Below are positions 4,481-6,832 of a stretch of DNA of 8,554 bases, piece after piece (position 1 is the stretch's first letter; each line of letters begins with the position of its first letter). The notes under the pieces were generated by a model. The model ran no database searches. It was given only the letters and a program-made list of their open reading frames with translations, and had not been told where the DNA came from. Source of the DNA: a virus (lineage: Duplodnaviria; Heunggongvirae; Uroviricota; Caudoviricetes); the IMG/VR virus record IMGVR_UViG_2534681988_000034. One strand, 5' to 3'. The position numbers and the translations under genes are program-made.

Positions 4481-4687
4481 TTAGTGATTCAGAGCGTTGC
4501 CGCGTCCGTCGAGAAAAACTTCCACGAGCAAGTCACGGGTATAAGTGCGCTCAATGCCGCGATGCAGATAAAGTCGTCCGCGTAAATTAGCTGATGCAGT
4601 CCAGGTACCATCTTTGCGTTTGACCAGCATTCCTGGCATGACCGCACCGCGATTAACGGTCTGCGTTCCGTAATGTTGATGAACCAT
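4481..4687 (-). CDS. Small pL-operon protein in the kil position (68 aa; 96 aa if started at 4771)
   Basis: ORF directly upstream of gam on the minus strand. Internal ATG (rc of 4685-4687) has a strong AGGAG RBS 5 nt upstream; the longer form from 4771 has only a poorly spaced GAGG. Basic, Arg/Lys-rich small protein; function inferred from position only. Confidence 0.5.
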   Translation of the reverse strand: MVHQHYGTQTVNRGAVMPGMLVKRKDGTWTASANLRGRLYLHRGIERTYTRDLLVEVFLDGRGNALNH

Positions 4688-4964
4688 AAAAACTCCTGCC
4701 CGTAAGCTGGGCTGCTGAACATATAAAGACTTCTGCGCGTATTCAGGCGGTGGATGGCCGCCGGTTGTCATAACTAAGCCGCCTCGTTGAAGCGACTAAG
4801 GTATGAAATGTTGAGTTGATTTCAGCTGGTCACACCGACGTTCACGCGTCCGTTTCATCCCTCGCACTCCCCGAAGCCTGCTGAAATTCAAGCTGCGGAT
4901 CTAAGCGGTCATCGCAACGGTGAATCAGGTGATTGCCGTATCGTTGTGTTGTTGCGATGAACTC

Positions 4965-4993
4965 ATTTAAAACTATAGTTGTTTTATCGTCAA
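4965..4993 (-). promoter_or_regulatory. Putative early leftward promoter pL (-35 TTGACG, 17-bp spacer, -10 TTAAAT)
   Basis: Minus-strand reading: TTGACG (rc of 4988-4993), 17 nt, TTAAAT (rc of 4965-4970); predicted start near 4957. The block is near-identical to the pR block upstream of cro (TTGACT-AAAAACAACCATAGTT-TTAATC). Confidence 0.5.
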
Positions 4994-5040
4994 CAACAAA
5001 AGTTGTTTTGTTGGTTGTTTTAGATATAACTGGTTGTATT
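4971..5040. promoter_or_regulatory. Putative OL operator cluster (repeated GTTGTT/AACAAC half-sites)
   Basis: Perfect 16-bp palindrome AACAACAAAAGTTGTT (4992-5007), inverted repeat GTTGTT-8-AACAAC (4978-4997), palindrome AACTATAGTT (4971-4980), and further GGTTGTTTT / GGTTGTATT copies (5013-5040). The same half-site TGGTTGTT/AACAACCA occurs in the cI-cro intergenic region. Confidence 0.45.
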
Positions 5041-5130: not shown

Positions 5131-5163
5131 GGCAAAAGAAAACCCGGCACGGTGGCCGGGTTT
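5131..5163 (-). terminator. Putative Rho-independent terminator closing the cI operon
   Basis: 9-bp stem AAACCCGGC(5140-5148)/GCCGGGTTT(5155-5163) with 6-nt loop. On the minus strand the hairpin is followed by UUCUUUUG. Lies about 75 nt downstream of the 147-aa gene stop and upstream of OL/pL. Confidence 0.5.
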
Positions 5164-5237
5164 AGATGATTGGTTAAGAGCGAGGGTAATGGGGAATGAA
5201 AAATCGCTTTACCTAATGCAAGGGTGCGAGCATTTTC

Positions 5238-5681
5238 TTAAGCACTAAAGAAAAAGTACATTGATAGCTTATAAAGTCCTGTTCCTGCAGCGATGATTGC
5301 TGGAACACCAAGCAATACCGCAAGCTTTGCGTCTGAAATCTTTCTATCGACAGCATCACTTGATGGCTTGTTTGTTAAGGATTCTTTTATAGAGTCCAGA
5401 CGTGCAAGAATAGTTATCATATTTTTGTCGATAGCTTTAACGTCTGTTTTAAGTTCATCAACGTCTCGTTTGATATGAGCAACATCGGACTCCAGTTTTG
5501 CAACTTTTTCAGGCATGTTATCACTCCCAGACCCACTGCTACCACTTGATTGTAGCATGTCCCATCTTTTTCCAGATATACCTGCTAGCTGGGAAGACGC
5601 ACTGGAGTGCAAACAAAATGATTCTGCCGCCTTTGCAATTTTATCATTTAGGTTTGGAGCTTCGTAATAATCGTGTTTCAT
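5238..5681 (-). CDS. Hypothetical coiled-coil protein with C-terminal transmembrane anchor (147 aa), in the rex-equivalent position
   Basis: Minus-strand ORF 12 nt downstream of the 87-aa gene. Ser/Gly-rich linker (SSGSSGSGS), heptad-like coiled-coil segment (KVAKLESDVAHIKRDVDELKTDVKAIDKNMITILARLDSIKESL), and hydrophobic C-terminus (LAVLLGVPAIIAAGTGLYKL). No SD before the first ATG; an internal ATG (rc of 5514-5516) has GGGAG at 7 nt and would give a 92-aa form. Region is AT-rich by eye. Confidence 0.6.
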   Translation of the reverse strand: MKHDYYEAPNLNDKIAKAAESFCLHSSASSQLAGISGKRWDMLQSSGSSGSGSDNMPEKVAKLESDVAHIKRDVDELKTDVKAIDKNMITILARLDSIKESLTNKPSSDAVDRKISDAKLAVLLGVPAIIAAGTGLYKLSMYFFFSA

Positions 5682-5693
5682 AATTAATTACGA

Positions 5694-5957
5694 TTAGTTT
5701 GTTTTAGCTTTGTCATGCTGGTCGCGAATGAAGTCAGCCAATTTAAGCATCAATTCTTCGGGCATTCTAATGGTTGCAATGTTGTACTTTATGTTCTCAA
5801 CATCGTCACTTTCATCAACAGGCCATTCAGTTACATTATGAAAAAAAGAAATTGAACCTAGGCGCTGAGAGCCGTCACCAAACGAAGAGTAGCCAAACGC
5901 GTCGGCGTATGCATCGACACAGTTATTTGATTTTTTAACAAGTGTTTTATTACTCAT
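5694..5957 (-). CDS. Hypothetical small acidic protein (87 aa), first gene of the module downstream of cI
   Basis: Minus-strand ORF 81 nt downstream of the cI stop. ATG (rc of 5955-5957) preceded by AAAGG at 5 nt. Acidic C-terminal half (WPVDESDDVENIKYNIATIRMPEELMLKLADFIRDQHDKAK). AT-rich codon usage unlike the flanking Red and cI genes. No family recognised. Confidence 0.6.
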   Translation of the reverse strand: MSNKTLVKKSNNCVDAYADAFGYSSFGDGSQRLGSISFFHNVTEWPVDESDDVENIKYNIATIRMPEELMLKLADFIRDQHDKAKTN

Positions 5958-6038
5958 TTTTGCCTTTCCCGTAATGTTATTTTTTATAAGGTATTTTCTT
6001 CAGCGTATTACCCAAAAGCCTCATCAACACGCGGCTGA

Positions 6039-6728
6039 TTATCCGTGTTTTCTGTACGTCTGCGGCATGCTCCCAATAACCTTACCGAATATGAATACCC
6101 GGTTCATCTCGTCTTTCTCGATAGGGTCCCACGGTGAGTAGCTCTTGTTATCAGAGATAACCAGCAGTTTATCCTTCATCATTTGCAGGCGCTTTACATG
6201 GGCGGTGTCGTCGTACAGAAATGCATAGATACCATCACCGTCGAAAGATTTAACCGTGATATCAACGAACAGCAGATCACCTGGTTCGATCGTTCCTGAC
6301 ATGCTGTCACCACGCACGTTAATGATGCGGATATTTTCTGCCTTCCTACCATCGAACATGTGACGAGCATCGTCAAACGAGTACTCAACCGAGCGTAGAA
6401 CTTCTACAAACTCACGGTTGATGACTCCCGGCCCAGCACTGACTTCTATATCAAGAACGTCAATCTTGAAGTATTTGGAATGGCTGACAGTTGATTGTAT
6501 TGGTTGCACTGTACTGTCTGACATATTTCCAACGCCAGAAGATAACCATTCTGCGCGCACACCCAAAGCGTTCGCGATCTCCACGATTTTAGTTGTTTGA
6601 TTAGCTTTCCCTGTTTCGATTTTCTGAATAGCAGCCTGGCTAACCCCGACCAAATCCCCAAGCGCCTTTTGTGTAAGGCCTCGCGCTAATCTGGCTTCTT
6701 TAAGTCTTTCTGAGAGTGTTGTTTTCAT
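6039..6728 (-). CDS. cI: CI-type prophage repressor (N-terminal XRE-family HTH + C-terminal S24/LexA-like autopeptidase)
   Basis: Start chosen at MKTTLSERLKEARLARGLTQKALGDLVGVSQAAIQKIETGK (ATG rc of 6726-6728), a typical HTH_3 N-terminus; the 22 codons upstream cover the operator region. C-terminal domain has an Ala-Gly cleavage site (VSAGPG), catalytic Ser in GDSM and Lys in VKRL, as in LexA / lambda cI. Divergent from cro. Confidence 0.85.
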   Translation of the reverse strand: MKTTLSERLKEARLARGLTQKALGDLVGVSQAAIQKIETGKANQTTKIVEIANALGVRAEWLSSGVGNMSDSTVQPIQSTVSHSKYFKIDVLDIEVSAGPGVINREFVEVLRSVEYSFDDARHMFDGRKAENIRIINVRGDSMSGTIEPGDLLFVDITVKSFDGDGIYAFLYDDTAHVKRLQMMKDKLLVISDNKSYSPWDPIEKDEMNRVFIFGKVIGSMPQTYRKHG

Positions 6729-6832
6729 AGTCCAAATGTACAACCAAGGTTTTATTCCATCAAACGAAAATGGTTGTTGACTAAAAACAACCATAGTTTT
6801 AATCTTGATTCAAATTAACCACGGAGGTTGTT
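6729..6832. promoter_or_regulatory. OR operator region with divergent promoters pR (plus, for cro) and PRM (minus, for cI)
   Basis: pR: TTGACT (6777-6782), 17-bp spacer, TAATCT (6800-6805), then GGAGG RBS and cro ATG at 6833. Inverted repeat TGGTTGTT(6771-6778)/AACAACCA(6786-6793) overlaps the pR -35 and spacer. PRM (minus): TTTGAT (rc of 6759-6764), 18 nt, TACATT (rc of 6735-6740), ending 6 nt before the cI ATG, implying a leaderless cI mRNA as in lambda. Confidence 0.55.

Follow-up and report, generated by a model that had tools for sequence, protein, structure and literature searches.

Two small genes that follow the cI-type repressor gene on the minus strand of a lambdoid prophage, here called A and B, form a cargo module in the slot that rexA and rexB occupy in lambda. 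We analyzed them in an 8,554-nucleotide stretch of DNA from the Caudoviricetes record IMGVR_UViG_2534681988_000034 (IMG/VR), hereafter the window, following up an earlier note that had been made from the sequence alone. That the A+B module is horizontally acquired, dispensable and swappable is well supported. Judged from its genomic context, it is probably anti-phage cargo of some kind, counting abortive infection and a SieA-like entry block together. For the specific reading as a two-component phage-exclusion device of the abortive-infection type, drawn from the same context, we estimate a probability of about 40%.

The window is 100% identical to a lambdoid prophage of Escherichia coli O26:H11 strain 11368, which is integrated beside tRNA-Arg and fimZ in that strain and in many genomes of O26/O103 Shiga toxin-producing E. 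coli (STEC). The genes on its minus strand follow one another as int, several small genes, exo, bet, gam and the gene for a KilR-type cell-division inhibitor; beyond a gap of ∼470 nt come the two unnamed genes and the repressor gene. The plus strand continues after cI with genes for a Cro of the YdaS type, a CII-like protein of the YdaT type and the replication protein O. The two open reading frames behind cI that the earlier note had singled out, of 87 and 147 amino acids (aa), were confirmed and are annotated in RefSeq as hypothetical proteins of strain 11368. Gene A (5694..5957, minus strand; WP_000066829.1) belongs to phrog_4231 (E = 7e-54), and gene B in its long form (5238..5681, minus strand; WP_012565042.1) to phrog_3556 (E = 1.5e-58), both families being of unknown function. 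Because the ratio of nonsynonymous to synonymous substitution rates (dN/dS) lies well under 1 in A (0.07–0.12) and in the conserved core of B (0.09–0.13), both are real, constrained genes, with purifying selection acting on A and on the B core.

A cargo slot inside the cI transcription unit

The repressor gene (6039..6728, minus strand) encodes a 229-aa protein with a helix-turn-helix domain and an S24 peptidase domain (Pfam HTH_3 and Peptidase_S24; RefSeq WP_000858975.1) and opens the lysogenic transcription unit to which the A+B module belongs. The intergenic spacer between cI and A (5958..6038, minus strand) contains, on reading the sequence, the Shine-Dalgarno of A (GGGAAAGG). A terminator scan found no minus-strand site between cI and A (6039–5957), so co-transcription of A+B with cI from the repressor promoter PRM is the default expectation. 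The same scan placed an intrinsic terminator of this transcription unit at 5131..5163 (minus strand), with a 9-bp stem at 5163–5140 followed by a T-run.

The earlier note had assigned this terminator to the module itself, a claim that did not survive an alignment of four slot states: the terminator is kept in the empty slot (L016) and with all of the alternative cargos. Sequence similar to it is also found in lambda-like phages, and in alignments with other copies of the backbone the terminator and all that follows it as far as kil, OL/pL included, are conserved regardless of the cargo after cI. The terminator is phage backbone, and its conservation irrespective of cargo means that the cargo has been inserted inside the cI transcription unit. 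Between cargo and terminator lies a spacer of ∼70 nt (5164..5237, minus strand) that, in the four-state alignment, is partly common to different slot states; because it is similar to the empty slot, it may be a recombination joint for cargo exchange. This spacer also holds a TTGCAYTAGGTA-like motif.

Beyond the terminator, a putative OL/pL (4965..5035, minus strand) was recognized by AACAAC/GTTGTT operator-like repeats and by reading the sequence, which offers TTGACG (4993–4988), a 17-nt spacer and TTAAAT (4970–4965) as promoter elements; a consensus promoter scan missed this pL, and the promoter stays putative. The same repeats recur at OR, between cI and cro (6740–6805), and their presence at both sites is compatible with an OL/pL and an OR. 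The terminator scan and the shared repeats bear out the order cI, cargo, terminator and OL/pL that had been read from the sequence. A composition check agreed with the note's description of the module as AT-rich: at 39.3% GC, positions 5238–5957 are the GC minimum of the window, compared with 46.2% for cI and 50.5–52.2% for gam, bet and exo, and GC at third codon positions is 31–39% in A and B vs 48–62% in the flanking genes.

We surveyed the slot with a query from cI to pL against 5426 complete E. coli genomes, 2215 of which matched. The slot is filled by A+B in 198 of the 5426 genomes and is present as an empty junction in 758. The module is enriched in O26/O103 STEC, the serogroups to which most of the genomes listed belong. 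Since presence and absence vary while the flanks stay constant, A+B is dispensable cargo, and the earlier description of a horizontally acquired moron holds. In most slot states the repressor is identical: WP_000858975.1 stands beside the empty slot and in three loci with other cargo (L017, L019, and L020). Two further slot loci differ, L018 having the variant WP_000858974.1 and L021 an XRE-family regulator.

Four other kinds of cargo were found at this position. Two match candidate defense systems in PADLOC, with E values of 1e-42 to 1e-133: a DUF6932 protein with a 310-aa protein (L017, 699–2101), corresponding to PDC-M63, and a 353-aa protein with an ASCH protein (L018, 697–2113), corresponding to PDC-M11. 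The other two are a DUF7946/DUF7947 protein (L019, 692–1555; also in L021) and a 126-aa BamE-like protein (L020, 697–1077). The view of the slot as a locus for defense-type cargo gained two candidate examples besides the candidate A+B itself, and it accords with the description of the cI–N interval as a mosaic hotspot, occupied by rexAB in lambda and by bstA in BTP1 (Owen et al., PMC8585504). A counterpart of the BamE-like protein, with a lipoprotein-type N-terminus, sits after a partner-B pair in Citrobacter (L022, 5474–5854).

A constant membrane protein with exchangeable partners

Protein A is acidic (isoelectric point 5.0) and has no hydrophobic segment; its AlphaFold model (mean confidence, pLDDT, 78) combines four beta strands with a C-terminal helix. 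In the family alignment, B consists, from N- to C-terminus, of an extension, a Gly/Ser stretch, a coiled coil, a KKPS-type motif (K-K/N-P-S) and a C-terminal membrane helix. AlphaFold places helices at residues 11–25, 56–103 (∼48 residues) and 108–146, the last including the membrane segment, and residues 1–55 comprise a short helix and a disordered Ser/Gly-rich stretch. The single hydrophobic segment of B lies at its C-terminal end (Kyte-Doolittle maximum of 1.8 at residues 118–136). These features fit the pairing of a small acidic soluble protein with a coiled-coil, tail-anchored one that the note had described.

The membrane helix of B spans approximately residues 118–140 (5262..5330, minus strand), as placed by the hydropathy maximum and the alignment, with conserved Gly and Pro residues in the motif LLGVPAIIAxGTG. 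Ten columns are near-invariant (L123, L124, G125, V126, P127, A128, I129, I130, G133, and T134). That the helix is the best-conserved part of B suggests a role beyond anchoring. The 92-aa core that contains it begins at Met56 (5238..5516, minus strand) and is the conserved part of the family. The first 55 residues (5517..5681, minus strand) form a fast-evolving extension specific to the partner class, with dN/dS of 0.19–0.58 and a third-position bias in distant pairs. The alternative that this extension is a non-coding leader was discarded: its frame is open in every class, its start abuts the partner stop, and dN/dS is below 1.

The family defined by the B core is restricted to Enterobacterales (Escherichia, Salmonella, Citrobacter, Klebsiella, Enterobacter, Cronobacter, Pantoea, Erwinia, Serratia, and Rahnella), and all of its members have either a hypothetical-protein annotation or an automatic coiled-coil name ("Lpp" or "XhlA", for example). 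Upstream of every B-family gene inspected lies a small gene, tightly linked to it, and in all loci but one this partner belongs to one of four classes without detectable similarity among them. Class I comprises A itself and its orthologues (87–99 aa), found in this window and in P22-like loci next to a B of 146–149 aa. Class II partners (136–160 aa), apparently all-beta, accompany a B of 125–130 aa in Pantoea, Salmonella and Klebsiella, the assignment of a 136-aa Citrobacter partner being tentative. Class III partners (93–95 aa) occur in Rahnella and Salmonella with a B of 175 aa, and the class IV partner (127 aa, with CxxC pairs) occurs in Enterobacter phage ENT1 with a B of 109 aa. When A was compared by BLASTP and hhalign with the partner of class III, and also with the B extension of that class, no similarity emerged. 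Each partner class pairs with its own N-terminal extension of B, and the membrane core stays constant.

Except in Pantoea and Rahnella, the partner-B pairs stand directly behind a repressor gene, and these repressors are of several unrelated types, including long S24-type and short non-S24 cI-type proteins (E. coli, Citrobacter, Salmonella, Klebsiella, and Enterobacter phage ENT1). ENT1 is an isolated temperate phage whose record is unannotated; it encodes an S24 repressor, a 127-aa protein with two CxxC pairs and a 109-aa B-like protein (L029, 1852–3297).

Searches linked neither protein to a characterized family. An exhaustive profile search with the A family against 1.84 billion proteins recovered 8 representatives only, close relatives of ∼90–100 aa, among which there was no connection to known families, and Foldseek comparison of the A model with the PDB and BFVD returned nothing significant. 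RexA and RexB families are absent from the Pfam and PADLOC matches of A and B at E ≤ 1. Against P22 proteins, BLASTP gave a best E value of 0.11 over 29 residues for SieA (type A), nothing better than E = 0.8 for SieB, for which Pfam also gave no match, and no similarity to orf59a or gp17. The earlier statement that the two proteins resemble neither RexA/RexB nor N or Nun stands, and the homology check that the note had called for matched neither to known structural or housekeeping phage proteins, and at most to coiled-coil noise. A suspected resemblance of A to DUF3467 or ribbon-helix-helix proteins was supported by no search.

Three features were missed by the earlier note: an internal start in B, the wider B family, and a second home of the module behind mnt in P22-like prophages. 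The long form of B starts 12 nt past the stop codon of A without a Shine-Dalgarno. A GGGAG Shine-Dalgarno lies within the gene (5524..5528, minus strand), where its bases, read in frame, are part of the Gly/Ser linker, and stands 7 nt ahead of the ATG that opens the core (5516–5514). A GGAGG or GGGAG was present 6–9 nt before an in-frame core ATG or GTG in 13 of 13 locus types examined, covering all classes, and of 102 family members with an extension, 98 have Met and 3 have Val at the core start (101/102). The long-form start lacks a Shine-Dalgarno in class I loci and has a weak one in two others (L028 and L008); where defined, it lies 2–16 nt from the partner stop or overlaps it. Gene callers frequently annotate the short 92-aa form alone. 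We infer that B yields two products, a long form made by translational coupling with the partner and a short form made independently. The B-like gene of ENT1 shows the same GGAGG-ATG internal start. Precedents for such an arrangement exist: in the P22 annotation, esc (29830–30336) is an in-frame internal product of the exclusion gene sieB (29758–30336), and the S107/S105 holin pair of lambda likewise arises from a dual start.

The holin precedent bears on another reading, in which A would be the antidote to B, a small membrane toxin or holin-like protein under this reading, and the pair would stabilize the prophage or tune its lysis or induction. A dual start recalls holin/antiholin pairs, and a small acidic protein tightly coupled to a small downstream membrane protein would suit such a pair. 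B also resembles XhlA of the Bacillus element PBSX (PF10779) in architecture, XhlA having ∼90 aa, an N-terminal coiled coil and a C-terminal membrane helix (the B core has 92 aa), and it matches PHROG "hemolysin" families weakly (E = 1e-4 to 1e-3). One UniRef entry for a B-family member is auto-named "Hemolysin XhlA". Membership of B in the XhlA family was nevertheless rejected, with 12.1 bits against a cut-off of 34.7 (E = 0.23) and only 1 of 30 relatives at E < 0.01, all under the gathering score; the XhlA signal in the family is no stronger than generic coiled-coil matches. XhlA is, moreover, a lysis-cassette gene, whereas the B loci are lysogenic: those read lie in lysogeny-expressed slots or at a prophage edge, except in Rahnella and the chromosomal Pantoea locus, and no holin or endolysin neighbor of B was seen in any of them. 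The module sits in the lysogenic rather than the late operon, and the 758 genomes that carry the same backbone without it indicate that it is not required for maintenance or lysis. Neither a recognizable antitoxin DNA-binding fold nor a known toxin family, the marks of a type II toxin-antitoxin pair, was found in A and B. We regard a toxin-antitoxin-like or self-directed role as distinctly improbable.

The second home lies in Salmonella phage UPF_BP1 and several P22-like prophages (L011–L015), where A+B occupies the position between gene 16 and mnt. The module is on the mnt strand there, and the start of A overlaps the stop of mnt (ATGA), forming an mnt-A-B operon. In UPF_BP1, A and the B extension are near-identical to those of L011, yet the core is only 34% identical to that of the window. 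Judged by these identities, UPF_BP1 reveals a joint between the modules of B, the extension traveling with A while the core is swapped. Further variable genes lie between A+B and gene 16 in four of these loci (L011–L014, 4483–6700), namely an 85-aa protein, a 217-aa DUF1902 protein and proteins of 151–297 aa that differ by locus. None of these genes has a PADLOC match, and together they resemble a second tier of cargo within the sieA region.

In P22 itself the region between gene 16 and mnt holds sieA, and about two thirds of P22-like phages have no sieA (PMC10883804). Both facts, together with the strongly conserved membrane helix of B, would suit a reading of A+B as a SieA replacement that excludes superinfecting phages by blocking DNA entry, B acting with A to disturb the conduit of ejection or tape-measure proteins at the inner membrane while the cell survives. 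The predicted topology speaks otherwise: B has one C-terminal helix and should lie for the most part in the cytoplasm, whereas four hydrophobic segments are present in SieA, which has no similarity to it. A cytoplasmic partner with four interchangeable classes is also easier to explain as a sensor of an intracellular cue, and an entry block of this kind seems unlikely to us.

One B-family gene lies outside any recognizable prophage, on a Pantoea chromosome, where an AraC-family regulator and focA/ccm genes flank it (L031, 2567–3279). Its upstream gene encodes a 90-aa coiled-coil protein with a C-terminal membrane helix, giving a tandem of two tail-anchored proteins. Such chromosomal copies speak for a reading in which A+B would serve lysogenic conversion other than defense, in the manner of bor and lom, as a tail-anchored envelope or stress protein that alters host physiology or fitness; the architecture of B resembles that of the E. 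coli tail-anchored proteins ElaB and YqjD. Any gene that profits from being expressed in the lysogen can be carried in a repressor-linked slot, the alternative cargos include a BamE-like protein with a lipoprotein-type N-terminus, and A+B is enriched in O26/O103 STEC. The family nonetheless covers plant and environmental genera (Pantoea, Erwinia, and Rahnella) as well as enteric ones, which makes a niche-specific virulence role unlikely, and an exchange of non-homologous partners with the core unchanged is a pattern typical of arms-race systems. We therefore think a non-defense conversion role improbable.

A proposed exclusion device and its relation to known systems

In the abortive-infection device that we propose, A+B would be transcribed with the repressor from PRM in every lysogen. 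Its effector would be the 92-aa B core, a C-tail-anchored inner-membrane protein that would oligomerize through its coiled coil and act on the membrane through its Gly/Pro-rich helix. A and the extension of long B, itself translationally coupled to A, would make up a recognition or restraint module, with A binding the extension at the cytoplasmic face of the inner membrane. Short B, made from its own strong ribosome-binding site, would co-assemble with long B through the coiled coil. On infection, a phage component would engage or titrate the A/long-B module and thereby release the core oligomer, which would then depolarize or permeabilize the membrane or, at its cytoplasmic side, prevent passage.

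The suggestion of a sensor plus a membrane effector, made in the earlier note, receives indirect support from the partner classes, which co-vary with the B extension around a constant membrane core. Such a model predicts a membrane module that stays the same and a cytoplasmic module, attached to it, that varies; the agreement falls short of proof. A more far-reaching version is that the loci represent an undescribed modular family of Enterobacterales prophage exclusion systems, with a constant tail-anchored coiled-coil effector in two in-frame isoforms and at least four unrelated sensor partners, circulating between cI and mnt slots. This version we regard as rather doubtful; under it, the isoform ratio would act as a built-in restraint, similar to that of holin/antiholin or SieB/Esc pairs.

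Several points weigh against the exclusion device. Sequence searches of A and B in Pfam, NCBIfam, PADLOC and the PDB returned nothing or generic coiled-coil matches (FlaC, Lpp, SlyX, and tail-needle proteins). In PADLOC-DB v2, A had no match, B gave coiled-coil noise only (E ≥ 0.004), and the partner proteins of the other classes had no match either. A literature search found no publication that mentions the accessions or locus tags of A and B, and on repressor-linked defense it found only work on BstA, RexAB and HepS-type systems. The neighbors PDC-M63 and PDC-M11 are themselves mere candidate defenses, so guilt by association is second-hand here, and repressor-linked hotspots also hold non-defense morons. 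The chromosomal Pantoea homologue means that the family is not strictly tied to prophages. Both the production of two B isoforms and the expression of the module from PRM are deduced from sequence alone, and the AlphaFold model of B is of low confidence beyond its helices (pLDDT 63). The prediction that B is mostly cytoplasmic argues against a periplasmic injection block and is no proof of abortive infection.

By its position and two-part logic, A+B would work most like lambda RexAB, an abortive-infection system that excludes phages such as T4 rII with membrane depolarization. Both modules lie between cI and OL/pL, co-oriented with cI and upstream of a shared terminator, and both consist of two genes, one for a cytoplasmic component followed by one for a membrane component. 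They differ in lacking any sequence similarity and in build: RexA is a cytoplasmic activator of ∼279 aa and RexB a polytopic protein of four helices, whereas A has 87 aa and B a single C-terminal helix with a coiled coil. An excess of the membrane component is provided for in lambda by pLIT, for rexB, and would be provided for here by the internal ribosome-binding site, for short B. In lambda, an excess of RexB over RexA suppresses exclusion (PMC8585504).

The remaining comparisons are partial. With P22 SieA, which blocks DNA delivery at the inner membrane, the module shares the slot between genes 16 and 9 in the immI region of P22-like phages, held by A+B orthologues in L002 and L011–L015, although the window itself is a lambda-type prophage. 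It would also share the character of a prophage-expressed inner-membrane protein, if B is expressed and located as predicted. SieA differs in being a single gene with four hydrophobic segments, as opposed to two genes and one tail anchor in B. P22 SieB/Esc offers one open reading frame with a long and an N-terminally truncated in-frame product, as predicted for B, in a context of prophage exclusion; there is no sequence similarity, and sieB, which has a promoter of its own, belongs to the pL operon on the other strand. BstA is likewise encoded directly downstream of a prophage repressor and presumably shares the repressor promoter (PMC8585504). Unlike A+B, it consists of one large cytoplasmic protein and has a DNA-based self-immunity element, and it has no homology to A or B. 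We class A+B as a candidate member of the repressor-linked prophage exclusion modules.

Neighboring features and significance for prophage biology

The region around the module contains further features of interest. On the minus strand between the putative pL and the KilR-type gene (4481–4687), no gene for an N-like or Nun-like antiterminator was found in positions 4772–4965. This stretch forms an untranslated pL-to-kil leader of ∼190 nt that is conserved from one slot state to another; Rfam gave no match to it, the fold predicted for it is ordinary (z = −1.1), and an Rfam scan of the whole window returned nothing credible. At the other end of the repressor gene (6728–6832), the longest cI reading frame has 251 aa, and its ATG falls within a perfect 9-bp inverted repeat (6770–6794) that resembles an OR operator; RefSeq places the cI start at the ATG at 6728 (229 aa). 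The Cro-like and CII-like genes (6833–7672) are named "YdaS toxin" and "YdaT toxin" in Pfam, and PHROGs lists them as a transcriptional repressor and a CII-like activator; the Pfam names are probably misleading here. Possible further defense or toxin-antitoxin cargo of the same O26 prophage lies outside the window, downstream of its replication genes, where a HEPN-domain protein is encoded next to a hypothetical one (L001, 13500–14296).

Repressor-linked slots are the home of rexAB in lambda and of bstA in BTP1, and they carry many hypothetical cargos. Among these, A+B stands out for its defined family, two independent lysogeny-linked homes, identical-repressor controls and a testable regulatory prediction. 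The natural slot variants (empty, A+B, and other cargo) beside an identical repressor make a clean comparison possible, and ENT1 would be a convenient experimental model. If A+B excludes phages, it would add a defense family built from parts without known relatives, in which a small membrane effector is re-targeted by swapping cytoplasmic partners, and B would be the second exclusion gene, after sieB/esc, to be regulated through an internal translation start. Carried by ∼200 of the 5426 complete E. coli genomes, those listed being mostly O26/O103 STEC, the module bears on the phage susceptibility of these pathogens.

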